From Candidatus Saccharimonadales bacterium (GTDB lineage: Bacteria > Patescibacteriota > Saccharimonadia > Saccharimonadales > 2-12-FULL-41-12), in the NCBI GenBank assembly GCA_036276755.1, contig DASUOG010000018.1:1-52700 (forward strand): a DNA stretch of 52,700 nt. The letters are read 5' to 3'. Of this stretch, positions 10,629 to 35,039 are shown one piece after another (within the stretch, counting starts at the first letter, position 1; every line of letters starts with the position of its first letter). Under the pieces are notes generated by a model. That model was given only the letters and a program-made list of their open reading frames with translations, had not been told where the DNA came from and made no database searches. A program made the translations under genes and the position numbers.

Positions 10629-11747
10629 ATGGAAGGTTCGTTACCCGGAACTCTCTTGTTACCTCCAGAAAGGCAAGCGCAGACAGACATTGATTGCACT
10701 GTCGGAGGAGTCGCCTTAAAGTGTGTCGCTTCCAATGTCAGACGGACTGATCTTCCTTGGGAATCATATGAATTGACAACCGGCCTTGGCGGAGAAGGTA
10801 ACCTGGTCGTCGTGGAAGCGATCTCTGATGATGGTTTCCGAACCGAGGTGGAAAGCCAGGCAGGACGCGATGAACGCATCTATGCAGGCGATAAACTCGT
10901 AACTGTTTTAGCCAACCGGCATTCAGGCACTTCCGAATCAGGGTATGTACCTGAAGAAGGTCTGGAGATTACCGAAGAAACCGAACTTCATTTGCTGGCT
11001 GCCGGCTGCGTAGTCGGTATAAATTCGGGTATGCCTGCCGGTGCCCGTGAGCCGATGAGGTTCAGATCGCTCGGACTGGTATCTGATGAACAAGGCCCCG
11101 TCGACCTTATCGATATATGCGGTGGGCATGATTCGGCACCCGATACTTCGGCGCCGGTCATCCTTGTCTGTGGCACCAGCGCAGAAGTCGGGAAGACAAC
11201 AAGTTCGATCCGGCTTATACGCGCCCTGGCAGACGAAGGTTTACGGGTGGCCGGTACGAAATTTTCCGGAACCGGCCGGATGCGCGACATATTAAGTCTT
11301 CGCGACGCCGGTGCTCGACCGGCATTGGATTTCCCTGAGGTGGGTTTGGCTACCACGTACACTTCTCCGGAACGCTATATCCCGAGTATGTATACGCTTT
11401 TCAATTATCTCAACGACGACAACCCCGATATTATAGTCGCTGAAGCCGGCGGTGATCCGATTGAAGCCAATATACCTACTTTTCTGCGGGACGAACGTCT
11501 GATGGAACCGGTAGTAGCCGCGGTACTGGTCTCGGGAGACGTTATGGGTATGATGGGGGCTATCGATTACCTTCGCAAACATGCTCCCGAACTGCCGATT
11601 TATTTGACGGAGCCCAAAGGCAGGAATCCGACTACCACCCGTGAGCGGGTTGCCAATGAATTGCCCGGATTTACTCTTTTTAACTCGCTTGATCGCTCGG
11701 CAGTATCAGCAGTGGCAAAAGAAATAATCGGGGAGTTGCGGCCATGA
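10629..11747 (+). CDS. DUF1611-like P-loop protein; first gene of the phosphonate operon
   Basis: GDKLVTVLANR, HLLAAG, VCGTSAEVGKTT (P-loop), KFSGTGRMRD, LDF.E.G..TTY; stop overlaps the pepM start. Confidence 0.7.
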   Translation: MEGSLPGTLLLPPERQAQTDIDCTVGGVALKCVASNVRRTDLPWESYELTTGLGGEGNLVVVEAISDDGFRTEVESQAGRDERIYAGDKLVTVLANRHSGTSESGYVPEEGLEITEETELHLLAAGCVVGINSGMPAGAREPMRFRSLGLVSDEQGPVDLIDICGGHDSAPDTSAPVILVCGTSAEVGKTTSSIRLIRALADEGLRVAGTKFSGTGRMRDILSLRDAGARPALDFPEVGLATTYTSPERYIPSMYTLFNYLNDDNPDIIVAEAGGDPIEANIPTFLRDERLMEPVVAAVLVSGDVMGMMGAIDYLRKHAPELPIYLTEPKGRNPTTTRERVANELPGFTLFNSLDRSAVSAVAKEIIGELRP

Positions 11748-12655
11748 AACGGAAAACCAGAAAAGTCCTGACGAATCCGCGGGTCGGGAAATTGCGCGAG
11801 CTGATAGCTGCCAAAGATATCGTAAGATTGCTTGAAGCCCATAACGGCTTGACCGGACTTGTAGTTGAAACCACCAGAATCAGCAAAGGCGGCAAAGACG
11901 TAGGCTTCGATGCCATATGGGAAAGCAGTCTTACCGACTCCGCCTCCAAAGGCAAGCCGGATATTTCCGTAGTAGATATGACTTCTCGCATGCAAACTAT
12001 CGAAGAAATCATGGATGTAACGACCAAGCCTGTAGTAGTCGATGCGGATAATGGCGGGTTGACGGAGATTTTCGGTTTTACCGTTCGCAGCCTTGAACGT
12101 ATCGGTGTATCAGCGGTCATAATAGAGGACAAGACAGGCAGAAAACGCAACTCACTTTCCTCCGCCGATGTGATTCATAAGCAGGATTCCATAGAAAACT
12201 TCAGCGATAAGATAGCTTTTGGCAAAAGAAGCCAGCAAAGCGATGAGTTCATGATTATCGCGCGTATCGAGAGCCTGATTTTGCGAAAAGGCTTGGCTGA
12301 CGCCCTGGCACGTGCCGAAGCATATATAAACGCGGGTGCTGACGGCATCCTGATCCACAGCAATGCTAGGAATCCGGAAGAAATATTGAGTTTCTGCAAG
12401 GAATACAAAAAGTTCTCTGATATGGTACCGTTGGTAACTGTTCCAACCAGCTATAATTCCATAACCGAGCCGGAGTTGATAGATGCTGGCGTAAAAGTAG
12501 TGATTTATGCGAACCAGTTGTTACGCAGCGCATATCCGGCTATGACATCCGCTGCTAAACTTATCCTGCAGAACGGACGATCGCTTGAAACCGATAAATT
12601 GTGTATTCCGGTATCAGAACTTTTAGAACTAATACCGTCTTCCACGGCAGAGTAG
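11744..12655 (+). CDS. pepM: Phosphoenolpyruvate mutase
   Basis: EAHNGLTG, WESSLTDS, DADNGG, diagnostic EDKxxxxxNS (EDKTGRKRNS), IARIESLI, IYANQLLRS; phosphonopyruvate decarboxylase directly downstream. Confidence 0.95.
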   Translation: MKRKTRKVLTNPRVGKLRELIAAKDIVRLLEAHNGLTGLVVETTRISKGGKDVGFDAIWESSLTDSASKGKPDISVVDMTSRMQTIEEIMDVTTKPVVVDADNGGLTEIFGFTVRSLERIGVSAVIIEDKTGRKRNSLSSADVIHKQDSIENFSDKIAFGKRSQQSDEFMIIARIESLILRKGLADALARAEAYINAGADGILIHSNARNPEEILSFCKEYKKFSDMVPLVTVPTSYNSITEPELIDAGVKVVIYANQLLRSAYPAMTSAAKLILQNGRSLETDKLCIPVSELLELIPSSTAE

Positions 12656-12660
12656 GGACC

Positions 12661-13779
12661 ATGAAAGTTGCCGAGCTTACGGATCTGCTTATAAAGGAAG
12701 AATTGACTTTTCTGACGGGTGTCCCATGCAGCTATCTCAAGGAATTGCTCGGCACTCTGGATGGTCGGACTGATTTACAGCACGTAGCGGCCAGTAGCGA
12801 AGGCGAAGCGGTAGGAATAGCCGCTGGTTATCATTTGGCAACCGGCAGAGTACCTGTAATATATTTGCAGAATTCCGGCTTGGGAAATGCAATTAATCCA
12901 TTGACTTCGCTGTCGGACAGGGAGGTTTACGGCATTCCCGGCATACTTTTTTTGACCTGGCGCGGCGAACCCGGCAAACCCGATGAGCCCCAGCACAAAA
13001 AGATGGGCCGCATAATGCCCGATTTATTGGAAGACCTGGAAATAAATTATGGTTTTGCTGACAGGGATATTGTCAAAACCACCGAAACTGTCCGTCGTTT
13101 AAAAGCCGAATCCCTTTCCGCGAAAAAGCCGGTTGCTTTGATTTTCCGTCCGAAGCTTATAGAAAAAACTGAAGCAACCCCCGGAATCTTAAATGCTAAG
13201 TTTATGAAACGCGAAAAAATCTTAAAGCTGCTGTTGCCAAAGATCGGTGAATCGCCCCTTGTAACTACTACCGGCAAAACTTCGCGAGAAGTGTTTGAAC
13301 TACGGGAAAAAAACGGCCAATCACATCAACAGGATTTCTTGACTGTCGGTTCAATGGGATGTGCCGCAGGTATCGGACTGGGGATTGCCCGGCAGACCTC
13401 TAAGAGAGTTTTTGTGATAGACGGCGACGGAGCGGTGCTTATGAAAATGGGCACTCTGGCCACGATCGGTCATTATAATCCGGAAAACCTGATACATATA
13501 GTAATAGATAACGGAGCTTATGAAAGTACAGGCAGCCAGCCGACCGTCGCCAAAAACTTAAAGTGGCGGAAGTTATTCAACGGTTTCGGATATAAAACGG
13601 TTCTGATTATTCGCACCCAGGACGCTCTGAAATCCCTTGAACTTGAAAAGATCAAAGGCCCGGCGGCCGTCGTTGTATATTCGCGGAGCGGATCTCGACC
13701 GGATCTTGGCCGTCCGACTACCGGACCCGGGTATAACAAACGGCAATTTATGAATTTTTTGGGGGTGAGCGATGAGTGA
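12661..13779 (+). CDS. aepY: Phosphonopyruvate decarboxylase (ThDP-dependent)
   Basis: GVPCS, EGEAVGIAAGYHLATG, YLQNSGLGN, WRGEPG.PDEPQH, TTGKTSRE, DFLTVGSMG, DGDGA. Start set at ATG 12661. Confidence 0.95.
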   Translation: MKVAELTDLLIKEELTFLTGVPCSYLKELLGTLDGRTDLQHVAASSEGEAVGIAAGYHLATGRVPVIYLQNSGLGNAINPLTSLSDREVYGIPGILFLTWRGEPGKPDEPQHKKMGRIMPDLLEDLEINYGFADRDIVKTTETVRRLKAESLSAKKPVALIFRPKLIEKTEATPGILNAKFMKREKILKLLLPKIGESPLVTTTGKTSREVFELREKNGQSHQQDFLTVGSMGCAAGIGLGIARQTSKRVFVIDGDGAVLMKMGTLATIGHYNPENLIHIVIDNGAYESTGSQPTVAKNLKWRKLFNGFGYKTVLIIRTQDALKSLELEKIKGPAAVVVYSRSGSRPDLGRPTTGPGYNKRQFMNFLGVSDE

Positions 13780-15127
13780 GCACGCCGAATCTCAGTTAAG
13801 AGCTGCGGCCGAGGATTTTTTTGCGACACTTAACTTGGATCCCGCCGAGAAACGGCGCATTTTTTCTGCCGTCGTATCCGACGTTAGGGACCGTCGTGAA
13901 GAATTGGCAGATTTGGCAGTTAGCGAAGTTAAATTGACACGCGTAGATGCTCGCAAAGAGATTGATCGCGCGTTAAACACCTTCATCCGGGCGAGAGACT
14001 CGGCCGATCTTATCCAGGAATCCACGTTTAGCTTGGGCGATGAGAAAATTGCTCGCGAAAAACGGCTCCCAAGGGGGCCGCTCCTAGCCATTACACCGTT
14101 TAGTAGCCCCTTCAGCTCGCCGGCTCACAAAATAAGCATGGGTATCTTAGCCGGTACGTCCGTTTTGTTCAAGCCGTCGCCTTTTGCCCGGCAAAGCGGG
14201 CGGGCATTATATACGATCATCGAAAAAGCGTGCGATGGAAAGTATGTATATTTTTCTGCTGAAGATGATCGGAGGCGTCTCGATTCTATAGTAGCCGATT
14301 CGCGTATTGGGATCGTTTCATTTACCGGCAGCTACTCCACTGGCAGCAGAATTATCAAGAACGGGGGCGTAAAACGGTACCATATGGAGCTGGCAGGCGG
14401 TAACTCACCGATAATATTCGCACCGGAATTTGATCGGTATGACGACCGGTTGGCTGGGGATATAGTCGACGGTATAACCGCTAAAAACGGACAGCGTTGC
14501 GTGTCGGTCAAACATTTGTTTATACCGGCTGGGCGCAGGCAATTCATAGATAAGCTACAAAGCCGGCTTGAACGGCTGAAGAACCACACCAGGGAACGGC
14601 CGGATAACGGCGGAGATCTCAAGCTTGGTCCGCTTATCACCGAAAAATATGCCAAACAAACAGCAAAAAAGGTAGGGAGCATCTTAGAATTGACCGATCA
14701 GGCCGACACGCTTATAGCATTGGAACGACGCAGGGATTATATTTTTCCCACTCTTTATGCAATCAAAAAAATTGACGAGCCTTTCATCCGTAACATCTTT
14801 GATTTTGATATTCCTGGGCCCGTAGCCTTCATTCATCTTTATAATTCACAGGCCGAATACGAAAAAATCCTTTCCGCGCTCAAACGGGATTATACGCGCT
14901 CGGGATTGCAATTGTCCTTTTACGTAGCTGACAAAATTTCGGCGGATAACATCATAAAAAATCTATTATGGGGCGGAATTATCTTTAATGATTTGCCGAC
15001 TTATCGCGATGAATCCATGTCGTTCGGTGGTTTTGGCAAATCAGGTCTGGGCAAAGAAGGATTTCCCGAAACACTAAATTCAATTACCGATCCACAAGTG
15101 GTAGTTTATCCCAAAGATTTTGTTTGA
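13772..15127 (+). CDS. Aldehyde dehydrogenase, probable phosphonoacetaldehyde dehydrogenase (PhnY-like)
   Basis: AITPF....AHK, FKPS, SFTGS, MELAGG, NGQRC (catalytic Cys), FGGFGKSGLGKEG; overlaps the end of aepY. Confidence 0.82.
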   Translation: MSEHAESQLRAAAEDFFATLNLDPAEKRRIFSAVVSDVRDRREELADLAVSEVKLTRVDARKEIDRALNTFIRARDSADLIQESTFSLGDEKIAREKRLPRGPLLAITPFSSPFSSPAHKISMGILAGTSVLFKPSPFARQSGRALYTIIEKACDGKYVYFSAEDDRRRLDSIVADSRIGIVSFTGSYSTGSRIIKNGGVKRYHMELAGGNSPIIFAPEFDRYDDRLAGDIVDGITAKNGQRCVSVKHLFIPAGRRQFIDKLQSRLERLKNHTRERPDNGGDLKLGPLITEKYAKQTAKKVGSILELTDQADTLIALERRRDYIFPTLYAIKKIDEPFIRNIFDFDIPGPVAFIHLYNSQAEYEKILSALKRDYTRSGLQLSFYVADKISADNIIKNLLWGGIIFNDLPTYRDESMSFGGFGKSGLGKEGFPETLNSITDPQVVVYPKDFV

Positions 15128-22126: not shown

Positions 22127-23047
22127 TCAAACCTTTTCTATTTTTTCTAATTTTTTTACGGATTTTACCATTAAAACAAAACCCAATAGGAGTATCACAA
22201 GAAGTAGATAGATTATCAGTAAAATAGTTTTCAATGTACTGTCGCTGAAGGCGGAAGATGAACTGGCTAGATACCTTATAAATACGATTGAAGTTACGAT
22301 ACAAAACAAACCTTTGGCAAAATAATCAAGCGCGCTTTTGTATATTATTCCGCGTACTTTCCTTCTATAAATATATAAGTTGAGTACAGCAAAAAACCCG
22401 TAATAAAACACCAGGATGTAGGGGATAACCACAGTGCCGATTATTAGCCAATCCGGCATATAATAGCCGGCTGTCTTAACGTCTTCCGTAGGGAATTGCC
22501 GCGCGGGATTATTCAGTGTCAAAAATATATAAAACTCACTGATAGCGATAATCGGAATAAGCGCCAGATACTTCCAGCCGGAAGCTTTTTTCGCCTCTTT
22601 CAAACTGCTGAGTTCGCTGGCACCTTTATAAATCAAAAGAAGGGCGGCGAGAACAAGGAGCAGGTTGAGGTAATTGTTTATGATCACCAGGGGCATCGTC
22701 CAGGAAGGCTGGACCCTGTATGCATAATTGGATAAGTTGGAAACTATCGTGCTGATCGGCAGCCATAAACAAAGCAGCAACACACCGGTGCTGATGGTCG
22801 AGAAAATCCGTCCGTCCTTGTAATTTGAAATGCTGTCAACATAGGACTTGAACTTTATATATACATACGACCCCAGCATCCAGACGAAGGCTATCGGCAG
22901 GGCAAAGGTGAGAGCCAATAATTTGGCTTCCGTTTCGCTCAGGCGGAATTTAGCTAGCGCGGACGAGTCCGGTGGGATAAGTAATACTTCCATTATATAG
23001 ATGACTGTCAGTGCTATAAACACCCAGAAAATTCTTTTATTGGCCAT
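22127..23047 (-). CDS. Polytopic membrane protein (~7-8 TM), putative receptor
   Basis: 306 aa of repeated hydrophobic segments; first gene of a tightly coupled 3-gene unit ending in a PAS kinase. Confidence 0.75.
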   Translation of the reverse strand: MANKRIFWVFIALTVIYIMEVLLIPPDSSALAKFRLSETEAKLLALTFALPIAFVWMLGSYVYIKFKSYVDSISNYKDGRIFSTISTGVLLLCLWLPISTIVSNLSNYAYRVQPSWTMPLVIINNYLNLLLVLAALLLIYKGASELSSLKEAKKASGWKYLALIPIIAISEFYIFLTLNNPARQFPTEDVKTAGYYMPDWLIIGTVVIPYILVFYYGFFAVLNLYIYRRKVRGIIYKSALDYFAKGLFCIVTSIVFIRYLASSSSAFSDSTLKTILLIIYLLLVILLLGFVLMVKSVKKLEKIEKV

Positions 23048-23129
23048 TACGCAAGCAGTCCCTCATAGGTTGAATAAAAATTATCACCATTTATCGAACG
23101 GGAGTGTGAAGTATTTTACAAAGGCGGGC

Positions 23130-23771: not shown

Positions 23772-24656
23772 ATGAGCTTTGGTATTGAAGATAGGGGAAA
23801 AGAAGGTTTCCCCGATGGAGATGTCGCTCCGGTTATGGACGGGGCTTTGTTGCAAGAGGTATCCGATCGGCTGGGTAGAGTTGGTTTATCCGGTGCCGCC
23901 GGGGTCGAAGAGCAACTTGAAGCCATGGACGTTTTCTGGGAGACCCTCGGCCGGTTTGTACCTGAGCTGGACGATGAACAGATGGATAGGCTTGATGAAG
24001 CCGTCCGATCTCATCCCGCACGGCGTGTTTTACCCACCCCGCTTTTGGACATAAGCGAGCTTAAAGCCGTCGCCGAGCGGGCGCGTGGGTTCCCCAGGCA
24101 GAATCTTAACCCGGATAACTCCGTGCTATGGCTTCCCGGCGAGAACCAGGCCTCCGGCAGGTTAATCAGAAATCCTAGAGGAGTAACACAGGATAAAGAC
24201 ATGGATTTAGGTTTGTTTTATAAAACTCCCGGCAGAAAGCTAACGGATCGGGAAGGTTTTATGACTGACATGCTTCAAAGGGGACGGGCAGTCGCCGAGG
24301 ATGGAACAGTATGGGTCTTTCCTGTTTTAGACGTTCGTATACGCAATTCCGGACGACGGGGCGCCCCGGCTATGGAGTGTTTCAAGCGGAATGATCCCGT
24401 AGTGACTACGGAAGTACTTGTTACCAAACAACTTCTGCATCAGGCACTTGGTATGACAGCTTCGGGCAGGTATTTGGAATTTGCCAATGGCGGAGTCTAC
24501 AGTCTTAAGGAAGACGGTACGCCGCAACGCTTACATTTTGCTCCGGGGGTGCACTGGGCTGGGAAAGAAAGACGTATAGGAATTTATTACAAACGGGCCC
24601 GGGGCAGGGGTCATCATATACATTACGGATTTACCCCTGCCACGAGCGGCCTTTGA
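23772..24656 (+). CDS. Hypothetical protein
   Basis: 294-aa ORF behind a near-consensus promoter; no family recognised. Confidence 0.7.
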   Translation: MSFGIEDRGKEGFPDGDVAPVMDGALLQEVSDRLGRVGLSGAAGVEEQLEAMDVFWETLGRFVPELDDEQMDRLDEAVRSHPARRVLPTPLLDISELKAVAERARGFPRQNLNPDNSVLWLPGENQASGRLIRNPRGVTQDKDMDLGLFYKTPGRKLTDREGFMTDMLQRGRAVAEDGTVWVFPVLDVRIRNSGRRGAPAMECFKRNDPVVTTEVLVTKQLLHQALGMTASGRYLEFANGGVYSLKEDGTPQRLHFAPGVHWAGKERRIGIYYKRARGRGHHIHYGFTPATSGL

Positions 24657-24820
24657 GCCTTACGTGATTATAGAAATTAGGAAAGGCTCAAGCATAAAAC
24701 ATATTATACAATATATTTTTTTACGTAAAATTACAGGGGTAAACATGGGCGTTGAATAATCCACAACGGCAAAATCCGATAGATTGCTTGTACTAAAAAA
24801 ACTTATGATATAATTAACTT

Positions 24821-24912
24821 AGCGTTTTTGAGATGATTGTGAGACAGTTCAAAAATGCAGTGAAACGTGAAGTTTTGAGAGGTAAAAAGAGCCGAAAAAG
24901 GGCTCTTTTTGT
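24821..24912 (+). ncRNA. Candidate orphan small RNA (~90 nt)
   Basis: Extended -10 TGaTATAAT at 24806-24814, 5' stem GCGTTTTTGA/TCAAAAATGC, ends in an intrinsic terminator. Confidence 0.35.
24884..24910. terminator. Bidirectional intrinsic terminator
   Basis: AAAAAGAGCC-gaaaaag-GGCTCTTTTT, perfect 10-bp arms. Confidence 0.85.
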
Positions 24913-24918
24913 TCGTTT

Positions 24919-24934: not shown

Positions 24935-24953
24935 GCGGCTCAGCTTTTAACTT

Positions 24954-25020
24954 TGGCTGGCGAGGAGGGATTCGAACCCTCGATCACGGGACCAGCCGTT
25001 ACCTTACCAGTTGGCCACTT
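24954..25020 (-). pseudogene. Degenerate tRNA-Gln copy (island boundary / att-like repeat)
   Basis: 39/42 identity to the 3' part of the tRNA at 30759-30800, then a 3-nt deletion in the anticodon arm, a recognisable D arm and a lost 5' acceptor strand. Confidence 0.85.
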
Positions 25021-25068
25021 ACACTTATTAAGTATGCATACGAAAACAATTGGTTTTATGTTTAATTA

Positions 25069-26046
25069 TTATAATTTCCGTTCGACCCATCTTGGCATTT
25101 CCATTTCGCCTAATAACTGACCGAGCCTTTGCATCTGTTCAGTATTGTCTGCAAAAAAGCCTCCTTGCACCAGCTTAGACTCATCGAGTCCTTCTTGAGC
25201 TACCTTAGACTGGAATACAATCTGTCTAAGCATAGAATAAATGCGGAAAATGTTTAATAAGTCAGGATTTAGCTGATATTTTCTAGATTCTTCATAAGCT
25301 TGTATCAGTGTATCTACTACGGCTTTATTATGGTGTGACCAATCCATAAGCTTTACAAAATCTTTCTCAGGAGGGGCTATTACAGCCGAATCCCAATCTA
25401 ATAAACAAATCCTGCCAATAGGACGCAGTATCATATTTTTGAAATGAGCGTCATTGTGCACCAGAACCAATGAACTCTCTGCCGCCTCTATAGTAGGCAA
25501 GTATTTCGTAAGAAATGCATCTATACTATCTGCTTCATAACCTGCATCTATCGCGGTTGACTTGAAATCTTTCACAAAACTTCCAGACCAGCTTACTTCT
25601 GGGTCGGATTTTTTACCTTCAACGAAGTCGAGGTAGTTGCTCGCGCCGTTGGATGGCACATGAACATCGGCCATTAGCCGACCGACACTCTCAGCTATTT
25701 CATCATCTAAAGCTAACTTATGTAAAAGTGTACCTTCAACGAATTCGGATATAAGTAGTTGAGGCCGTCTTTTATCATCGGCATATAAAACAGCGGGGAT
25801 ATCAACAATGCCTAGACTTTCTATGAAAGGTTCCTTAATGCACTCTTCATACCAAAACTCTGTTGCGGTGCGATAGCGAACACAACTTTTGCCACCCTCT
25901 GTATCTGCCACAACAACAATGGTATTTTGCCTACCGTCATGTATAAGTTCTGCACTGGCCACCTCTACGCCTAGAAGAGAACTGCAATCTGTTGCAGCAA
26001 TAGCTTCAAATTGCTTTGCCCGTTCAATGTCTGCTGGAGCACTCAT
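25069..26046 (-). CDS. Aminoglycoside phosphotransferase / choline kinase (APH) family kinase
   Basis: GRQN.I loop, IP.VL, LISEFVEG, LVHNDAHFKNMI (Brenner motif), LLDWD, P.KD. Confidence 0.85.
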   Translation of the reverse strand: MSAPADIERAKQFEAIAATDCSSLLGVEVASAELIHDGRQNTIVVVADTEGGKSCVRYRTATEFWYEECIKEPFIESLGIVDIPAVLYADDKRRPQLLISEFVEGTLLHKLALDDEIAESVGRLMADVHVPSNGASNYLDFVEGKKSDPEVSWSGSFVKDFKSTAIDAGYEADSIDAFLTKYLPTIEAAESSLVLVHNDAHFKNMILRPIGRICLLDWDSAVIAPPEKDFVKLMDWSHHNKAVVDTLIQAYEESRKYQLNPDLLNIFRIYSMLRQIVFQSKVAQEGLDESKLVQGGFFADNTEQMQRLGQLLGEMEMPRWVERKL

Positions 26047-26273
26047 ATATATCCTTAATTCATTTATTATGAAGCGATATCTATCTATAAGTAAAGTATT
26101 ATTTTGAAGCCATACAATTTAGATCGATGTGTAATACATATTATACTATTTTTTAATATCTGTCAAATTTTTGCTTATGTATTAATATTTTTTGTATTCT
26201 TCATACTTCTCAAGATTTCTAAAAATATTAAAACTATTAATAAATAATCTGAAGGGTGATGTCGAATATTTAA

Positions 26274-27641
26274 TTAAATTTTCGATGCCACACGAATAGC
26301 ATTTGCCGCTAAAGATAATGTTACATTTGCTCCGCCTGATGTAGGCATAAATGACGCGTCAATAACAAATAAGCCTTCACAGTCATAACTCATGCAATTT
26401 GGATCAAGAACCCCGGTACTATAATCCAGCCCAAACTGCAGGCCACCATGCACATGAGTTGAGAGGTAATTCCTAATATCAACTCTATGTTCCAATGTAT
26501 TCTTATCGTAACCAAGTTTTTCTAAAAAAAATAACATTTTTTTGAATGCTCTTTTTCTAAGCTCGATATCGTGAACATGCTGTTTGTAATGTATAGCCGG
26601 AATAGGCACACCGCTATTATTAACAAATCTGGAAAGGGTTACACGATTTTCCATTAACGGCATGGCCTCCCCTTTAAAATTGATTTGAACAACATACTTC
26701 TTTTTTTCTTGATTAAGTCTATCTAGAGAAAAATTAGACTTTATTATTTCTTCTTTTCTTTGTTCTTCACCTTTAAAAAATAATCTGTCAGAAAAGCTAT
26801 ACTTACCACTTTTAATAGTGGTTGCCGTTGAGGATTCGTATTCATCCATGTATGCCAAAGTGAAGATATTTCTTTTCTGAGGTGTCCTGTCTATGTCTAC
26901 GATTGCCCGAACATACATATCCGTTAGAAAGGTGATCTTTCTCCCGACCAAACCGTTCTTACCTAACCCTGATAGCAAAAAAAGTCTTATCGACTCGAGA
27001 GTTGAGCATCCTAAAACAACAATTTTAGAGCTTAAGCTGAACTCCACTCCAGTTTTGTTGTCTATACAATAGACACCAGTAACTTTTCCATTCTTGTGCT
27101 GCACTTTAGCAACCTGGGTATCAAAGTATTCTGTAACTTGATTTTTTGTAGACACCAGTCCATACAAGTTTGCAGGTTTGCCATCAACTTCCGAGGTCGC
27201 TATATGCTCGGTATTAATATTGTGCTTGCGTAGTTTTTCAGCTATTTGCGATTCAAACTTGGTTGCACTTATTGCCGGCGTTTTAAGAAACTCATATGCT
27301 TTAGGGTAGTAGCGATTAAATATCTTGTAGCTAACACACCAGTTATCAAGAATCGCACCCGAAACTCTGCTATCGTTCTTGAAAGTACCTAAATTAAAGT
27401 CCAGTTCCGACAATTCCACTAGATGCCCGTGCCAAGCCTGTGTCGTGCCGCCTTTTCCCGCTCTGAGCCATTTCTGCTCATGTTTAATATTATTAAATTC
27501 AAATTCAGGTACATGCATTTGGGTGCTTGACCCATTTTCAATCACTGCGATCTTATGAGATGGGTGTAATTTGCTATATTCATTAATGAAAGAACTTGAA
27601 GACGCTCCAGTACCCACTATTACAATATCGTAATCTACCAT
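26274..27641 (-). CDS. GMC family FAD-dependent oxidoreductase
   Basis: YDIVIVGTGASS, GGTTQAW, ESIRLFLLSG, NRVTL, H.HGG, GVLDPNC...GLFVIDASFMPTSGGANVTL. Confidence 0.88.
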   Translation of the reverse strand: MVDYDIVIVGTGASSSSFINEYSKLHPSHKIAVIENGSSTQMHVPEFEFNNIKHEQKWLRAGKGGTTQAWHGHLVELSELDFNLGTFKNDSRVSGAILDNWCVSYKIFNRYYPKAYEFLKTPAISATKFESQIAEKLRKHNINTEHIATSEVDGKPANLYGLVSTKNQVTEYFDTQVAKVQHKNGKVTGVYCIDNKTGVEFSLSSKIVVLGCSTLESIRLFLLSGLGKNGLVGRKITFLTDMYVRAIVDIDRTPQKRNIFTLAYMDEYESSTATTIKSGKYSFSDRLFFKGEEQRKEEIIKSNFSLDRLNQEKKKYVVQINFKGEAMPLMENRVTLSRFVNNSGVPIPAIHYKQHVHDIELRKRAFKKMLFFLEKLGYDKNTLEHRVDIRNYLSTHVHGGLQFGLDYSTGVLDPNCMSYDCEGLFVIDASFMPTSGGANVTLSLAANAIRVASKI

Positions 27642-28471
27642 CTAAAAGACTCACATATATAGGTAGGAATATCTAAGGATCTGCCCTTAATGGTTTCGCA
27701 GAGTTTGTTCGTACTATTATCTAGCATGTTAAAATTGTCAAAAGCTGCGCCAGTAGTCACTAGAAGTGTATCAAAACCTTGGGTAAATGCGCCTACGCAA
27801 TCAGAAAAATATTGATCGCCAATTGCAAGAACCGTTTTTGGGGAATTAATTTTGAATTTATACATACAATGCTCGTATATGTATTTTTCTGGTTTACCAA
27901 AATTAACAACTTGCCCTCCATTTGACTCATACTTGTGACATATTTTGTCAAGGCCTTTAAAAATACCATTTGTTCGTACGGTACTTTTATCTCTAGTAGG
28001 CACTATTAAGGGTATGTTTTTGTTTATAGCAGCTTTCATCCAGTAGTCATGGACTGAAATTTCGTTCTCTGGCTTAACTCTTAACAACACTACGGCATCA
28101 GAATCTTCTACATTTTCAACTTGCCTGTTAATTATATTCTCCACTACTGACAAGTCTTCGTCTTCAGCCACAAAGTACACCTTGCGAAATTCTTCATCGT
28201 TTTGCATATGCATTGTCAGCATATCCGCCGATGTAAATACATCACTGAATAAGCTAATATTGCAATTGAGATTAGCCATTAAATTTTGATTGGTTCTTTT
28301 ATTTCTGCTGGAATTGGTGATAATAATTGAATGTTTTTTATTAGCTTTAATGTTTTCAAGACATTCATTCACACCCTCATACAAGTTGTTGCCGTCATGG
28401 ATTACGCCCCATTGATCTATTAGCAAATAGTCGTAATTTTGAATAATTTCAGATATTCCGGATATTATCAT
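27635..28471 (-). CDS. HAD subfamily IIA hydrolase
   Basis: IDQWGVIHDG, ITNSSR, GKP...IY, IGDQ..SD..GA, LVTTG. Confidence 0.88.
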   Translation of the reverse strand: MIISGISEIIQNYDYLLIDQWGVIHDGNNLYEGVNECLENIKANKKHSIIITNSSRNKRTNQNLMANLNCNISLFSDVFTSADMLTMHMQNDEEFRKVYFVAEDEDLSVVENIINRQVENVEDSDAVVLLRVKPENEISVHDYWMKAAINKNIPLIVPTRDKSTVRTNGIFKGLDKICHKYESNGGQVVNFGKPEKYIYEHCMYKFKINSPKTVLAIGDQYFSDCVGAFTQGFDTLLVTTGAAFDNFNMLDNSTNKLCETIKGRSLDIPTYICESFRW

Positions 28472-29534
28472 AGTTGTCGTTTACAAATTTATTGATTAAT
28501 TTAGTGAGTTGGTGCATGTGATGTTCTTTCGAAGAAATCGAAACTCGGAAGAACCCGGCTGGCATATCATGTCGGTCAAAGACTTTTATAATTAATTGAT
28601 TGCCTAAAAGGTAATCGTACATAGGTTCAACCGTTCGAGGGTCTGTCTTACACAGTATGAACGACGCTTTAGATTGATACGCTTTTATTTTATTTGCAAT
28701 AGTGGGGTGGGTTAGGTTTCGGTGCGTATGGTTTTTTAAGTCTATTACTTTGGTAATTTTTTGTAAAAAAACTTCATCGTATCTTATGCATTCGGATGCG
28801 ATAAGATCAGTAAGAATATTATTTCCTAAATAATTGTCAAATATCTTTAATTCCTTAGCAAATTCGTGTCCTATAAATGTATACCCCACTCGTAATGCAG
28901 AAATGCCATATAGCTTCGACATGGACCTGCAGACTGAAATATTAGGGAAACGCCTCATGAATTTTGTCGGATTATAGTCAGAATCAGTGAAACAAATGTA
29001 TGTTTCATCAATGATGAATAGTGCAGAAGGAAATTCTGCTACGATTTCATATACCGCCCTTACGTTTGTAAACCCACCAGTAGGATTCGATGGGTTGTTA
29101 ATTATGACTAATGGTCGTTTGCCTTTCGACAAGATGCTTATTATGTTCTCTTTGAGGGAGTCAATGTCTAGTTTAAATAAACCGGATACGTCATCTACTG
29201 AGTAGAATCGCGGTTCATGACCATATTTTGAAGATAGAACTCGATAATAACCCCAGGAATATTTTGGAAGTAGGAGTTGGAGATTGCCGTCAATTGTGCG
29301 AGAAAATGCGGATAGAAGAAAATCCTCGACCCCATTTGATATATGGATTTCGCTTTTTGAACAATTGTATTTTTCAATCAGAGCCTTTTCCAGCCTTAGC
29401 TCTGTGTTGTAAATACTGAAGTTTATATTATTTCTTTCTATAAGATCCGAGACACTGAAAGGTAGGTCGTTGTGTAACTCATTTCTTGATAAATCTATTG
29501 CTTTTGGATTTGTTTGCCGATTGATTCTGTTCAT
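28449..29534 (-). CDS. PLP-dependent class I/II enzyme, HisC/CobD-like (aminotransferase or decarboxylase)
   Basis: IDLSRNE, SNG.ED, NNPSNPTG, IIDETY, RSMSKLYGISALRVGY (PLP lysine), FRVSI. Confidence 0.88.
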   Translation of the reverse strand: MNRINRQTNPKAIDLSRNELHNDLPFSVSDLIERNNINFSIYNTELRLEKALIEKYNCSKSEIHISNGVEDFLLSAFSRTIDGNLQLLLPKYSWGYYRVLSSKYGHEPRFYSVDDVSGLFKLDIDSLKENIISILSKGKRPLVIINNPSNPTGGFTNVRAVYEIVAEFPSALFIIDETYICFTDSDYNPTKFMRRFPNISVCRSMSKLYGISALRVGYTFIGHEFAKELKIFDNYLGNNILTDLIASECIRYDEVFLQKITKVIDLKNHTHRNLTHPTIANKIKAYQSKASFILCKTDPRTVEPMYDYLLGNQLIIKVFDRHDMPAGFFRVSISSKEHHMHQLTKLINKFVNDNYDNIRNI

Positions 29535-29536
29535 TA

Positions 29537-30619
29537 TTAACCAAGATTCATTATTTTATCTCTTTTAATCAGCTTGCTTTTGGCTCCGAATCTTTGAACG
29601 TAAAGGTACCCAGGCTTACATGGATTAACGGCATCCTTCAATGAAGGCGCGCTATTGAATGTCTCGATGTACAATTTTGGAAAGTTCAGGCCCAAAAGCG
29701 CTAAGAAGTAAGTTGAAGTAAAAAACCTGCTTGCCTGGATCTCTGTAACAGCAGGATGTCCATTGTCATCAACTAAGTAGTCGATTCCCATTGCGCCGTT
29801 AACTGACCCGAATGACCTCACTACTTTGTCAGAAAGTTCATGAATATAATCATTTGATACTGTCATATTTGCCCCTGTGTATCCAGTTACTCCCGACACT
29901 GCTAGGTCTGAATGCTCCCAGTAAAGCCTCTTTCTTACTTGACTTGCAATAAGCTCATTGTCTTTATATAGCGCAATCCACGAAACCATCTCGCCTGGTA
30001 GTAAGTCGTCGCTTAAACGCTGTTTCCAAGAGTAGGACTCCTTTATGTCGATCCTTTTTGACACCAAATAATCGCCCCAGCCATTTCTTTCATCTAGTAC
30101 ACTAGAAATTACCGCCACACTATCTGCTCTAAAAGACCCCTTCCCACCTTGTCCACTTTTTGCTCGTATCCAAAATTCGTTGGAGCTTATATTTCTAGAA
30201 ATATCGTACAGCTCTTCAACATTATTTGGTAAACCGGTATATGGAGCATTAAACCCTTTTGCAACCAGATGACGATAAGTAAGGTACTTATCTTCGTAGA
30301 TAACAATTTGCTTATGCGTCGGCAGAAACACAGGATATTTATTCCTATGCTTAGAATAATCAAGCATATAGTAGTCAGATTTAGATTGATAAGTTAGGTC
30401 AAAGTCAACATTTGATTCTTTTCTGGCAATGTCGATTACTTTTGAAGGATATTGATTTTGGGCTTCAGACACGTAAATATTGTGGTCAACTTCTGATAGT
30501 AAAGATCGAATACGATGAGTCGAGGTACCGTAAATTTTACAATCAATCGCTGCATGTTTTAAACAAGATACAAAATTACTGCCAGAAGATTTATCTGAAT
30601 TCAGAACTAAAATGTTCAT
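29537..30619 (-). CDS. ATP-grasp fold carboxylate-amine ligase (CarB-like, single domain)
   Basis: DKYLTY..L...G...P.T, WIRAKSGQGGKGS, GIDYLVD..G.P.VTEIQA.RF. Start set at MNILVL (alternative TTG 30637). Confidence 0.8.
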   Translation of the reverse strand: MNILVLNSDKSSGSNFVSCLKHAAIDCKIYGTSTHRIRSLLSEVDHNIYVSEAQNQYPSKVIDIARKESNVDFDLTYQSKSDYYMLDYSKHRNKYPVFLPTHKQIVIYEDKYLTYRHLVAKGFNAPYTGLPNNVEELYDISRNISSNEFWIRAKSGQGGKGSFRADSVAVISSVLDERNGWGDYLVSKRIDIKESYSWKQRLSDDLLPGEMVSWIALYKDNELIASQVRKRLYWEHSDLAVSGVTGYTGANMTVSNDYIHELSDKVVRSFGSVNGAMGIDYLVDDNGHPAVTEIQASRFFTSTYFLALLGLNFPKLYIETFNSAPSLKDAVNPCKPGYLYVQRFGAKSKLIKRDKIMNLG

Positions 30620-30758
30620 CTTAGTCAGTACCGTCAAGTAAAGAGACTTTTGGATTATCGTATGTCATAAGCCTCTTTTGGCCATATATTAAGAAGCTTT
30701 ACTTCTTTAATCCTACCTAAGGGAATATCGGCCATAATTTATTAACATTATATAGTAT

Positions 30759-30832
30759 TGGCTGGGGAAGAGGGATTCGAACCCCCGATCACGGGACCAG
30801 AACCCGTTGCCTTACCGCTTGGCTATTCCCCA
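30759..30832 (-). tRNA. tRNA-Gln (anticodon CTG)
   Basis: Reverse complement TGGGGAATAGCCAAGCGGTAAGGCAACGGGTTCTGGTCCCGTGATCGGGGGTTCGAATCCCTCTTCCCCAGCCA: full cloverleaf, U1-A72, encoded CCA. Confidence 0.97.
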
Positions 30833-30890: not shown

Positions 30891-31946
30891 TTATTCTTCG
30901 GTGCTTAGTATCTGCTCTAGTTCGTCGACGGAACGCTGGTACATATCCACGACCGCTTGGGTATCTCGCAGGTCTTTTCTCAGACTGGTTCTTGTATTTA
31001 CGCGGAAGAAACGGCTGAGGAAAGGCAATTCGTCGAATTCCTTAATTTTTTCTTCGATTTCTTCCACGCGCTCAGATGATGCCGCCAAGCGTTGCTGTTC
31101 TTCCGGTAACCATTTGCCGGCGACTTCTCGCTCCATATCTTCCCGCCCATCGCCAAAGCCATAGTCCCGTACTGTCTCGAGTGCGCGATAGACGGACTTG
31201 GAGCGCAGGGCTTCAGCCCGCACTTTTTCATTGAGTTCCGTGCGCATATGCTCGTCCATGCCTTCTGAGCTGTAATCATCAATAGTTTCCACCGCCCTAT
31301 ATAAATTTGACGTCCCTAGAGCCACACTTCTGACACGCCGGTCATGGCTGCGGCGCATTGCCGGTTCGGCGGCAGCGCTAGCATAACTTTCTATGGTTTC
31401 TTGTCCCCGGTACAGACTTCGCTGCTGCATGGCTTCGCGAAATACCCGGATATCAAATCCGGCTCTCATGCCGGGCTGTGCTCCCCGGGTAGCATGGTCC
31501 AGTTCTTCGACGCCTCTATATAAACTGGGAGCGGCGAACATGGTGTCCAATACCACTCTGTTAAGTCCGGAGCGAAGGGCAAGTTCTTCGGCCCCACGGC
31601 CGGTAATCAGATCGGAAAGTTCGATGCTTTCCACCGCCCGATAAAGAGACGGCTGGGCATGTGCATTATCAAACACTCGGCTTAACCCTTCCATCGCAGC
31701 AAAATCTTCGACCATCTGTTCAGTCAGTCGTAGATCGCCGTGCACACGTCCATAAACCTCATCAAGTATTTCTTCTACCTCTTTGGAGACCAAAGCCAGA
31801 TGCCCGGCGATTTCTCCGCTTTCCGGGTCGAATGTCCTTGCGGCCAACTCGCCTAAGGCAGCTGCCCCGTCGCTTTTGGTAGCATCTAGTAATTGTTCCT
31901 GATACGCAGGGACTTCGATCAAACTCCCAGGTCTTTCGATGGACAT
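30891..31946 (-). CDS. Hypothetical tandem-repeat protein (five ~37-aa SLYR repeats, C-terminal coiled coil)
   Basis: SLYRAVE, SLYRGVE, SLYRGQE, NLYRAVE, SVYRALE spaced 41/36/37/37 aa; SD GGGAG and TATAAT upstream. Confidence 0.8.
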   Translation of the reverse strand: MSIERPGSLIEVPAYQEQLLDATKSDGAAALGELAARTFDPESGEIAGHLALVSKEVEEILDEVYGRVHGDLRLTEQMVEDFAAMEGLSRVFDNAHAQPSLYRAVESIELSDLITGRGAEELALRSGLNRVVLDTMFAAPSLYRGVEELDHATRGAQPGMRAGFDIRVFREAMQQRSLYRGQETIESYASAAAEPAMRRSHDRRVRSVALGTSNLYRAVETIDDYSSEGMDEHMRTELNEKVRAEALRSKSVYRALETVRDYGFGDGREDMEREVAGKWLPEEQQRLAASSERVEEIEEKIKEFDELPFLSRFFRVNTRTSLRKDLRDTQAVVDMYQRSVDELEQILSTEE

Positions 31947-32664: not shown

Positions 32665-33780
32665 ATGGCTGCACCAAGCGAACTGGATCCAAGCCTGAAA
32701 CCGAAACAGCAGCTGGAAACCGTGTGCGCCAGATGGGGCGTAACTTATGATGATGCAATCCAATATTACGGGGGTGAAATAGCTTATTTGCTCGGCGGCC
32801 AGGACCCTGTAGGCGAAAATGAGGTTCTGGAAAATTTGAACATGGTTCCCAAGGCATTACAACCGAGTCCGGACTCGGCTTACGCTATAGCGGACAGAAA
32901 AGCATATATGGAAGGCGTGCCTGACGCTGCCAAAGCATTGCTCTTACCGCATGTCGAGGCAGAGGGCAATAGGATAGGTTATTTAGATGATGATCCTAAG
33001 CAATATGAGGCTCAAAGACCGATGCGTTTTTCTGTAGACGGTGAACGCCAACCCAGGGAAAATACTGATTTCATGGCAGAAAAAGTCGACGAACGCTACC
33101 CCGAAGCCATGGAAAAATTAAGCGCCGACGAAGGTTCCAAAGAGGCGATCCAAACTGCCATCAAGCTGATGCAACAAGGCAAAAGTATCATCGGAATAAC
33201 TTTTCATGCCAAAGATATAATCGACACGGCCATCGCCTTGAAGTTTTACCTTGATCTGTTTGATGAGCAAGGGTATTCTCCCGATAAAACCGCGCTGAAC
33301 CTTAGCAAGAGTCTTGCGTGGGGAGAATACGAAGTGCCCGGCTTGGGACCGGTCGTGATGATAGACGTAGTAAAAACCATAGCGGACCGCACTCACTTAT
33401 CCTGGCCTAAGACCGATTCATCCGAAGACATGCTGAGGATGCTGCCGCAACGGGAGATTAACCGTAATAATAAGTACGTCGCCACCGATATCAAACAGAT
33501 GCTGGCAGACGGTAACTCCCTTGTGGTCATATCGCCTACGGGAAGCACCAGAGGAGGCGGTGTCAAGGCCGGTACGGCCGAACTTATGGCCCATCCGGAT
33601 TCTTATGTCATGCCGCTGTCGCTATGGCGCATGGGGGAAGAACTTAAGGTCAGGTGCATGCCGCCGGTTAATTTGAAAGGTGCGGCGGATGTCGACATCC
33701 TGATGGTAAGTTTCGCCAAAGATTTATCCGATTTGGTGCCGGATCAGGATTTCCTCTATACGCCCCACCTGCGGGCTTAA
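32665..33780 (+). CDS. Hypothetical protein, possibly a divergent glycerolipid acyltransferase
   Basis: 371 aa; IGITFH...ID, LSK, VVISPTGS and VMPL occur in the order of PlsC motifs I-IV but are degenerate. Confidence 0.5.
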   Translation: MAAPSELDPSLKPKQQLETVCARWGVTYDDAIQYYGGEIAYLLGGQDPVGENEVLENLNMVPKALQPSPDSAYAIADRKAYMEGVPDAAKALLLPHVEAEGNRIGYLDDDPKQYEAQRPMRFSVDGERQPRENTDFMAEKVDERYPEAMEKLSADEGSKEAIQTAIKLMQQGKSIIGITFHAKDIIDTAIALKFYLDLFDEQGYSPDKTALNLSKSLAWGEYEVPGLGPVVMIDVVKTIADRTHLSWPKTDSSEDMLRMLPQREINRNNKYVATDIKQMLADGNSLVVISPTGSTRGGGVKAGTAELMAHPDSYVMPLSLWRMGEELKVRCMPPVNLKGAADVDILMVSFAKDLSDLVPDQDFLYTPHLRA

Positions 33781-35039
33781 AGTCTTTCTTCTGCCGGGTG
33801 GATTTTATCTATCTTATCTGATTTCGCGTGTTCTCTCCGGGCTTTTAGGATGAACGGCAGGGAAACCGCACTGATGACCCCGGATACCATATAAGACGTG
33901 GAATAGCTGTAGATGTCGGCTACCTTACCCAGACCCGGCTGGAAGATGACGCCGCCACCCGAACCTATCATTGAATCAAATGATAATACCGTGGCCCGCT
34001 GGCTGGATGATATCTCGCCGTTGATGTAAGCCTGACGCACTGGCATGGTGGTCGCGAAAATCAATGCCCAGAGCACGATCAGCGGGATGGCGATAGCGAA
34101 ACTGTTGATAAATCCGAAGACAATAAGTATGACAGCGCTTACGGCATAACCGCCGAACAGCACACTGGTCCTTTTGCCGAACAAGCTGATAATCTTCGGA
34201 ATTACCAAACCGCCCAGTATCTGGGCTCCGGCAACGATAGCGGCAACCAGTCCGGCGATGGAATATGCCTCCGGGTTTCCGTAAAGTTTTAATAGGTACG
34301 GCTGCATCGCATAAAATACGTAAAAGCTGATGCCGGTCATGAACGGTGACGACAACATTATCCAGCGGATCTTGCGATTTTGAAGACCGTGTTCTATCGA
34401 AGAGTTTAAAATCCTTTTTGCTTCTTTTAAGGGTTGCTTGCTTCTCTCTGGCTTAAAGCCGATATCACGCATAACCAGAAACGCTACAATAAAACTTAAA
34501 ATTAAAATGGCCGCGCGGAATATGTAAGGGATGCCGAGGTTACTGGCTTGGGCAATAATCCCGCCGACGACGGAACCGCTGAGCATGGCGATGCCGCTGA
34601 CTACCTGGCCTTTGGCAAATACGTTATCCAAATTTCCTTTGAACTTGTGGTAGTGAAGAGCGTCGACCAGCCAGGCTTCGACCGCTCCGGAAAAGAATGT
34701 ATAGCCAAGACCCAGAACTACCGAAGATAAGGCCCAGCCCCAAAACGGGCCGGAAATTTCCCACATATATAAATAAAAGCCAGTCGACAGGCTAAGGGTC
34801 AAGGCGCCGAGCAAGAAGGATGTACGCCGGCCCCTGCTATCGGCAACTACACCGGTAGGGACTTCAAACAGCAGTTGTCCCGCAGTGAAGAAAGCATTGG
34901 CCGCGAAAGCTTCGGTATTGGAAAGTCCGGCATCCAAGAGGAACAGGGTATTGATACCCCATATCAAGGAGGTCGCCAGAGTATTTAAAAGCGTAAGGGT
35001 AAGATAGATACGCTGAACGCGCCGCGCCTCATTATTCAT
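33777..35039 (-). CDS. MFS transporter
   Basis: ~12 TM; FEVPTGVVADSRGRR (motif A), SGAVEAW, RATVLS. Confidence 0.92.
   Translation of the reverse strand: MNNEARRVQRIYLTLTLLNTLATSLIWGINTLFLLDAGLSNTEAFAANAFFTAGQLLFEVPTGVVADSRGRRTSFLLGALTLSLSTGFYLYMWEISGPFWGWALSSVVLGLGYTFFSGAVEAWLVDALHYHKFKGNLDNVFAKGQVVSGIAMLSGSVVGGIIAQASNLGIPYIFRAAILILSFIVAFLVMRDIGFKPERSKQPLKEAKRILNSSIEHGLQNRKIRWIMLSSPFMTGISFYVFYAMQPYLLKLYGNPEAYSIAGLVAAIVAGAQILGGLVIPKIISLFGKRTSVLFGGYAVSAVILIVFGFINSFAIAIPLIVLWALIFATTMPVRQAYINGEISSSQRATVLSFDSMIGSGGGVIFQPGLGKVADIYSYSTSYMVSGVISAVSLPFILKARREHAKSDKIDKIHPAEERL

Follow-up and report, generated by a model that had tools for sequence, protein, structure and literature searches.

The DNA considered here, hereafter the window, is a stretch of 52,700 nucleotides from Candidatus Saccharimonadales bacterium (contig DASUOG010000018.1), and five of its genes make up an island next to a tRNA-Gln gene; the island was moved horizontally and has no integrase. 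The encoded proteins are an ATP-grasp ligase, a pyridoxal phosphate (PLP) enzyme of the HisC/CobD fold, a HAD phosphatase, a GMC flavoenzyme and a kinase of the APH fold, and, to judge from sequence comparison, this cassette belongs to a rare family of clusters with members in Patescibacteria-like contigs, Alphaproteobacteria and Clostridium. As for its function, we would give roughly equal weight to belief and to doubt in the reading that the five enzymes could act in one cytoplasmic pathway, each step of which is a proposal, leading through a hidden phosphate to an N-acylated amino sugar or aminopolyol. The elements concerned are the following:

30759-30832, minus strand: tRNA-Gln(CTG), found by ARAGORN; the island starts past its 3′ end.
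29537-30637, minus strand: ATP-grasp ligase (Pfam ATP-grasp_3), of the PylC/PurK/PRK12767-like three-domain fold, predicted amide ligase.
28449-29534, minus strand: PLP enzyme of the HisC/CobD fold (Pfam Aminotran_1_2), predicted transaminase of a phosphorylated keto compound.
27635-28471, minus strand: HAD class IIA phosphatase (Pfam Hydrolase_6), of the TIGR01459 (DQWG) type.
26274-27641, minus strand: compact GMC flavoenzyme of the sugar-oxidising group (Pfam GMC_oxred_N/C).
26047-26273: AT-rich spacer, with a sigma70-like site at 26166-26138 on the minus strand, pointing to the kinase.
25069-26046, minus strand: kinase of the APH/choline-kinase fold (Pfam APH), predicted pathway kinase.
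24953-25020 (approximately), minus strand: decayed tRNA-Gln copy, a direct repeat at the far border of the island, missed by ARAGORN.
24881-24913: terminator-like hairpin directly outside the island; the genome G003, whose site is empty, has a comparable hairpin after its tRNA.

All five open reading frames (ORFs) are on the minus strand, intact and free of internal stops in the ORF list, at the positions and with the junctions given in an earlier note on this DNA: a gap of 2 nt between the ligase and PLP genes, overlaps of 23 nt (PLP/HAD) and 7 nt (HAD/GMC), and a spacer of 227 nt between the GMC and kinase genes. The same note had assigned the genes to the ATP-grasp, HisC/CobD-like, HAD, GMC and APH families, as Pfam and NCBIfam confirm, had described the DNA as low in guanine-cytosine (GC) content, which the measured values bear out, and had seen no transporter, regulator or glycosyltransferase; none of these, nor an integrase, is found within the island in the ORF list or by Pfam. 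A strongly hydrophobic stretch of 19 residues occurs in none of the five proteins according to hydropathy, and none is matched by the defence-protein models of PADLOC 2.0. The sigma70-like site of the spacer stands at chance level, with 20 sites found by the promoter scan against 20.4 expected, and the terminator counts are likewise at chance level.

The evidence for mobility comes from composition and from the site itself. The GC content is 0.370 in 25019-30758 against 0.485 elsewhere in the window, and at third codon positions it is 0.34-0.36 in the cassette genes against 0.49-0.61 in all seven of the other window genes measured. The island, of about 5.8 kb, lies between tRNA-Gln(CTG) and a decayed, near-full-length copy 5805 nt away, in which 43 nt are 93% identical without gaps and a 3-nt deletion follows further along. 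The same tRNA-Gln is present in G001, G002, G003 and G005; the site is empty in G003, where the distance from the tRNA to sequence matching window 24694-24884 is only about 200 nt, and in G002 it holds 1.3 kb with an ORF resembling aldo-keto reductases (L029:489-1541, assigned by eye). The marks of a tRNA-targeted island, that is, a tRNA with a direct repeat, a site that varies among relatives and an atypical composition, are all found here. The view of the earlier note that a pathway of small-molecule type was acquired horizontally on a tRNA-Gln island is supported. The island has no integrase of its own, and a single tyrosine recombinase is encoded elsewhere in the genome (contig C28 of G000, the host genome, which comprises 892,603 bases in 37 contigs and is 91% complete). 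Ahead of its terminator, the empty site of G003 (L028:5093-5300) also contains a separate 21-nt repeat of the tRNA 3′ end, the scar of another small insertion.

A second record of Candidatus Saccharimonadales (L001), the closest match among named genomes, carries the same tRNA-Gln, a ligase 87% identical to that of the window and the start of the PLP gene. Between the two, the ligase has a ratio of non-synonymous to synonymous substitution (dN/dS, Nei-Gojobori) of 0.10 and the first 148 PLP codons one of 0.20, and dS is 0.62 and 0.47, respectively, against 2.7 for metK, 2.3 for corA and saturation for a gene of an MFS transporter. From these values we infer that the ligase and PLP genes are under purifying selection and, because their dS is far below that of the core genes, that the cassette was transferred after the split of the species, i.e., recently. 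In a groundwater run from another study, eight listed pieces extend across all five genes with about 90-94% identity, one spanning GMC and HAD and one passing from the kinase into the spacer, and the flanks are almost uncovered; the run X1, a possible source of the window, was excluded from this independent support. None of the listed runs that hold the cassette is an RNA dataset.

The cassette is rare. A close ligase was found in 2 of 401 genomes of the order (four further matches are distant) and, in a phylum sample of 401, only in G000, with one distant match; a strong kinase match was likewise confined to G000 among 401 genomes of the class. The GMC query of the window had no match in G001-G005, although for G005 this says nothing about its cassette, because the contig ends inside the PLP gene. 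Among viral contigs, 67 pattern matches included no relative of the ligase, the kinase had no match in phage records, and the clusters obtained from the atlas were all generic GMC and APH ones. No donor was identified by the whole-genome searches, which covered Patescibacteria.

The ligase, whose start is probably the ATG at 30619 (360 aa), matching the start in L001, is matched weakly by Pfam ATP-grasp_3 (27.5 bits), and its structural model (predicted local distance difference test, pLDDT, 87.7) is a three-domain ATP-grasp with Z scores of 25.6 to 2pn1 and 24.9 to PurK and PylC at 12-14% identity. The residues K117, R158, G162-Q163-G165, D286, E299, Q301 and R304 are invariant in 18 of 18 rows, and we take them from the fold to bind nucleotide and metal; both the fold and the ATP/Mg-binding residues of ATP-grasp enzymes are present, and the protein is predicted to form an amide. 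In the tree of ligases that of the window falls in a clade of 21 rows (100/100) with L007-L010 and a protein labelled as alphaproteobacterial.

The PLP enzyme scores below the NCBIfam cut-offs of both of its candidate families (HisC, TIGR01141, 133.5 of 276.55 bits; CobD, TIGR01140, 103.7 of 290.55 bits), and it conserves D176, K207, R215 and R330, which include the cofactor lysine and arginine, in all seven rows aligned. In a tree of eight rows its nearest neighbours are the L008 and L009 enzymes (98/97), although it sits on a long branch and its placement is unsure, and its third match in the PDB is 3fkd, annotated as threonine-phosphate decarboxylase. The enzyme is distinct from the housekeeping HisC and dispensable for histidine, because the genome has its own hisC within the his operon on contig C11.

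The phosphatase exceeds the cut-off of TIGR01459 (118.2 against 103.75 bits), presents the DxWG motif I and the GD motif IV, shows 32-33% identity with its HAD counterparts in L008 and L009, and has no hydrophobic signal-like stretch by hydropathy. The model of the GMC enzyme resembles fructose and glucose dehydrogenases and pyranose and C-glycoside oxidases (template modelling, TM, scores 0.70-0.78), and the catalytic pair His396/Asn439 is kept, so that both the fold and the pair of the sugar-oxidising group are found; the Cys-rich segment in the consensus of its relatives is missing. Its motif for flavin adenine dinucleotide (FAD) reads GTGASS, identically in P0181 and P0182, the canonical form being GxGxxG. 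Its close relatives are only two, one 85% identical and the other 93% identical and truncated (P0182, 298 aa), and the rest are 23-32% identical over long alignments.

In the kinase, H197-x-D199-x-H201-xx-N204 and D217 are invariant in 15 of 15 rows. It obtains 16-18 bits with the models of resistance APHs, whose cut-offs are 620-680, which places it outside that group, and it shows weak matches to APH(9) and a choline-kinase-like signal. It is 48% identical to the C-terminal half of a ligase-kinase fusion (P0034), the ligase part of which is 41% identical to that of the cassette, and it lies inside the operon in the related loci L009, L011 and L027. Because of this fusion and of these operons, the kinase is read as most likely a pathway enzyme rather than an immunity gene. 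The earlier note had left two options, a kinase giving immunity to the producer or a cryptic phosphate added by the kinase and removed by the HAD; the latter is now favored and the former has become less likely.

The family was delimited as 14 loci outside glycan operons, 13 from a profile scan of metagenome contigs and one from a plasmid; the profiles used for the gene counts that follow were built in part from these same loci. An APH-like kinase is present in 9 of the 14, a HisC-like enzyme in 7, a phosphatase in 7 and a radical SAM enzyme similar to HydE/PylB in 8, these last scoring under the PylB and HydE cut-offs; a GMC gene is present in none. Only five longer loci (L009, L010, L011, L017 and L027) are fairly complete. 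L009 joins close relatives of four of the five cassette genes in a single run (radical SAM, HAD, ligase, kinase, HisC-like), and both L011 and L027 combine two radical SAM genes with ligase, HisC-like enzyme, kinase, a short-chain dehydrogenase/reductase (SDR) and a phosphatase. Ligase, PLP enzyme, kinase and phosphatase thus do occur jointly elsewhere, in distant bacteria and in other gene orders, as the 14-locus counts also indicate and as the earlier note would have required. L027 is the plasmid of Clostridium estertheticum DSM 14864 (LL032_RS23975-RS24015), where the operon is free-standing, lacks a glycosyltransferase and has a toxin-antitoxin pair and a recombinase downstream; the identities to the cassette are 35% for the ligase, 25% for the kinase and 22% for the PLP enzyme. 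This is a cultured organism that carries a family operon. The operon is divergent from a run of PqqD, CPBP protease, ABC transporter and CYTH genes (L027:6019-20776), which could be part of the same cluster. L017:3496-21023, for its part, is a large hybrid cluster with a BtrH_N protein, a LysA-type decarboxylase, two radical SAM genes, ligase and kinase, as well as NTP_transf_5, ketosynthase, carrier-protein, WbuX-like and AMP-ligase genes. The HydE-like genes on plasmids of Bacillus, Bradyrhizobium and Streptomyces were set aside as belonging to other clusters without the ligase.

The proposed pathway would consist of the following steps: (i) the GMC enzyme would oxidise a sugar, polyol or glycoside, turning one of its hydroxyls into a carbonyl; (ii) the kinase would phosphorylate that unit, before or after the oxidation; (iii) the HisC-fold enzyme would transaminate the phospho-keto compound; (iv) the ATP-grasp ligase would join a carboxylic acid, probably an amino acid or a small hydroxy acid, to the new amine; and (v) the HAD would strip the phosphate. 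HisC-fold enzymes act on phospho-keto substrates. It is because of these substrates, of the activity of Cj1437 on dihydroxyacetone phosphate (DHAP) and of the position of the HAD after the ligase in Campylobacter that transamination of a phospho-keto compound and a late dephosphorylation are suggested. The GMC enzyme would likely occupy the slot held in most relatives by the HydE/PylB-like radical SAM enzyme together with an SDR or epimerase, because it occurs in none of the 14 loci, a radical SAM enzyme occurs in eight, and none was found in the 91% complete G000, either by the HydE model, the Pfam family and a motif scan or by tblastn with 10 partner proteins of the related loci; the product would therefore probably be unlike those of the relatives. 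That this product is a diffusible metabolite, defensive or directed at the host, would be our guess.

The logic of these steps has precedents. In the capsule of Campylobacter jejuni HS:2, according to the available text of PMC11800397, Cj1437 transaminates DHAP to serinol phosphate, Cj1436 is a phosphoserine decarboxylase, Cj1438C an amidoligase and Cj1435 a HAD, and the order for Cj1437, Cj1438 and Cj1435 is to transaminate, ligate and dephosphorylate, with the HAD acting after the ligase. The cassette shares a PLP enzyme for a phospho-compound, an ATP-dependent amide ligase and subsequent removal of the phosphate by a HAD, and differs in having no glycosyltransferase or capsule locus, in adding a kinase and a GMC enzyme and in the free-standing PylC/PurK-fold ligase; with no glycosyltransferase in the island, it does not belong to the capsule modules, and the likeness drawn here is one of enzyme logic. 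The same five activities are found in pseudouridimycin biosynthesis, with the phosphatase PumD, the GMC oxidase PumI/SapB, the transaminase PumG/SapH, the ATP-grasp PumK and the kinase PumH (PMC10127198, PMC7835738, in the portions available), of which SapB, SapH and PumK oxidise, transaminate and ligate in sequence (PMC10127198, same portion). However, the cassette lacks the pseudouridine synthase PumJ, the tailoring enzymes PumE/M/N and the transport genes, and so stands outside that group; SapH is of fold type I subclass II and takes an unphosphorylated substrate, in contrast to the HisC-like cassette enzyme, PumH is an adenylate kinase and not of the APH fold, and PumD is proposed to act first, whereas the HAD of the cassette is proposed to act last.

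Other pathways are more distant. Kanosamine transaminases are of the DegT type. Sugar oxidation, transamination and a phosphatase for a phospho-sugar recur in NtdABC/KabABC and in RifL/K/M/N, where RifN is a kinase, but there is no amide ligase and the dehydrogenase is not a GMC enzyme, RifL being NAD(P)-dependent (PMC8788734, as far as its available text goes). With pyrrolysine (PylB/PylC) the cassette shares the fold of the ligase, which ties with PylC (Z 24.9), and most relatives carry the HydE/PylB-like radical SAM; nevertheless, the identity to PylC is 14% and G000 has no radical SAM match, so that the cassette is not of this type. The cluster of C. estertheticum, which stands alone on a mobile replicon, shares homologous ligase, kinase and PLP enzyme and also has a phosphatase; it differs in having two radical SAM enzymes, an SDR, an epimerase and a P-loop protein where the cassette has the GMC enzyme, and a histidine phosphatase in place of the HAD. 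No described product of a cluster of this type was found, and the main text of PMC8792950, the part available, mentions no ATP-grasp, phosphotransferase or aminotransferase. Likewise, no description of the five-gene combination was found in the main texts of the open literature, most subscription papers lying outside it, in line with the remark of the earlier note that it matched no described cluster.

Several observations weigh against the pathway proposed. The pairing of GMC and PLP enzymes was seen in this lineage only, and nine of the 14 loci span less than 6.5 kb, for which reason their gene content is incomplete; of the longer ones, L010 consists of a HAD, a gene similar to lactate dehydrogenase (LDH), a close ligase and another HAD, without kinase or HisC-like gene, and in L017 neither a HisC-like gene nor a phosphatase was detected. 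The island has no exporter gene, and more distant relatives of the ligase sit in glycan loci. The PLP enzyme, besides its long branch, is 26-29% identical to members of the cluster family and has a lysine where the genome's own HisC has an arginine; by its scores it may be of either the HisC or the CobD type, and its role as a transaminase is a prediction. The FAD motif of the GMC enzyme is without two glycines that are conserved in at least 90% of 51 aligned rows, and each of the five enzymes is at most about 30% identical to any solved structure.

The main rival, which we consider unlikely, is that the enzymes decorate a surface glycan in trans, in the manner of serotype conversion, with a uronate as the acid partner and a chemistry like that of Cj1435-Cj1438. 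Five glycan-type loci of Patescibacteria (L022, L023, L024, L025 and L040, of which L023 and L040 were read by eye) encode ligases about 30% identical to that of the window, with a Gfo/Idh/MocA dehydrogenase and a HAD in all five; the genome possesses UDP-glucose/GDP-mannose dehydrogenases that could supply uronates, the lack of an exporter would fit, and Cj1438 amidates glucuronate after polymerisation (PMC11800397, in part). It is because these distant ligases occupy glycan loci that the rival is retained. However, the four of them included in the tree form a separate clade (100/100) from that of the window, the kinase and the HisC-like enzyme are present in none of the five, the close relatives and the Clostridium operon have no glycosyltransferase in the run, and L017 has ketosynthase, carrier-protein and AMP-ligase genes around it. 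The concern of the earlier note that homologues might be fragments of capsule or O-antigen loci is thus answered for the close homologues, which are not in such loci, the ligases in glycan loci being more distant ones. Less probable is a scheme in which a toxic aminoacyl-amino sugar is the product of four of the genes and the kinase, transcribed separately, protects the producer, as the spacer of 227 nt with its candidate promoter and the APH(9) matches might suggest, protection by phosphotransferases being common in producers and the two roles being able to coincide (PMC12710036, in its available portion). Against this, the promoter match is what chance would give, P0034 joins kinase and ligase in one protein, the kinase lies within the operon in L009, L011 and L027, and close kinases (48-54%) are few and in five cases on contigs equal in size to those of close ligases; furthermore, a HAD without a signal-like stretch would reverse the protection inside the cell.

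A slimmer chance attaches to a decarboxylase similar to CobD or Cj1436: the kinase would phosphorylate serine or threonine, decarboxylation would give an aminoalcohol phosphate, and the GMC enzyme would make the acid partner, an aldonate or uronate. CobD enzymes carry an N-terminal His-Gly-Gly, which is absent from the PLP enzyme of the window, and the HisC model outscores the CobD model both here and in the three relatives scanned, three of three; on the other side are the 103.7 bits with CobD, the place of 3fkd among the PDB matches, the choline-kinase-like signal and the precedent of Cj1436 (PMC11800397, in part). Finally, it is scarcely credible that the island is a decaying or chance set of foreign genes without a joint function. 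Its rarity in the order (close ligase in 2 of 401), the altered FAD motif and the truncated P0182 could be read in that way, but the genes have no stops, their reading frames are coupled, dN/dS is 0.10-0.20, the partners are conserved across phyla, and all five were recovered in the independent groundwater study.

Some observations concern the surroundings. In the glycan loci a module recurs, composed of a DegT aminotransferase (not in L025), Gfo/Idh/MocA, ATP-grasp and HAD, with P0060 as an ATP-grasp-HAD fusion, and it is possibly an unstudied module for the N-acylation of amino sugars; the single match to the GMC profile among these loci, in L024, looks by eye like a different FAD enzyme. 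On contig C5 of G000 (22544-23050) the match to a UDP-glucose/GDP-mannose dehydrogenase domain is split in two. The island is bordered by orphan ORFs of host GC content at 23772-24656 (plus strand) and 30891-31946 (minus strand), the latter with internal repeats, and neither has a match in Pfam, NCBIfam or PADLOC or a counterpart in the sister loci examined. A 15-codon ORF upstream of the ligase was considered as the precursor of a ribosomally synthesised and post-translationally modified peptide (RiPP) and rejected, being not kept in L001, and the MFS transporter gene at 33777-35039 was discarded as a dedicated exporter because it is also found in the cassette-free loci of G001 and G004. At 10629-15127 (plus strand) the window contains a phosphonate operon encoding a P-loop protein, a phosphoenolpyruvate (PEP) mutase, a thiamine pyrophosphate (TPP) enzyme similar to phosphonopyruvate decarboxylase and an aldehyde dehydrogenase, which from its gene content would yield phosphonoacetate, unusual in so small a genome; no connection with the cassette was seen.

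In summary, the enzyme classes and their logic are known, and the family and its GMC form appear undescribed. Biosynthetic clusters are said to be uncommon in streamlined genomes such as those of Patescibacteria (PMC12455944, in the part available), and for this reason a selected, mobile and complete pathway in one of them is unexpected. A bolder reading, which we hold to be rather unlikely, is that an ultrasmall episymbiont with a 0.9-Mb genome maintains by selection, and exchanges between species, the full set of five enzymes needed to make a new bioactive N-acyl amino sugar that acts on its host, on competitors or on phages. In this reading the pathway would represent the cluster family, undescribed and spanning phyla, in a form free of iron-sulfur enzymes, with a flavin oxidase in place of the radical SAM step. 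The cassette in any case anchors a rare cluster family for which no description was found in the literature searched, and its small size, five soluble genes within 5.6 kb, together with the lack of an iron-sulfur enzyme, allows reconstruction in a laboratory host or in vitro, which opens both the product and the hidden-phosphate model to direct test. If the cassette served only the decoration of glycans, it would be a variant of the Campylobacter-type chemistry and less notable; if the replacement by a flavin oxidase is true, the cassette would be the easiest member in which to find the chemistry of the family.

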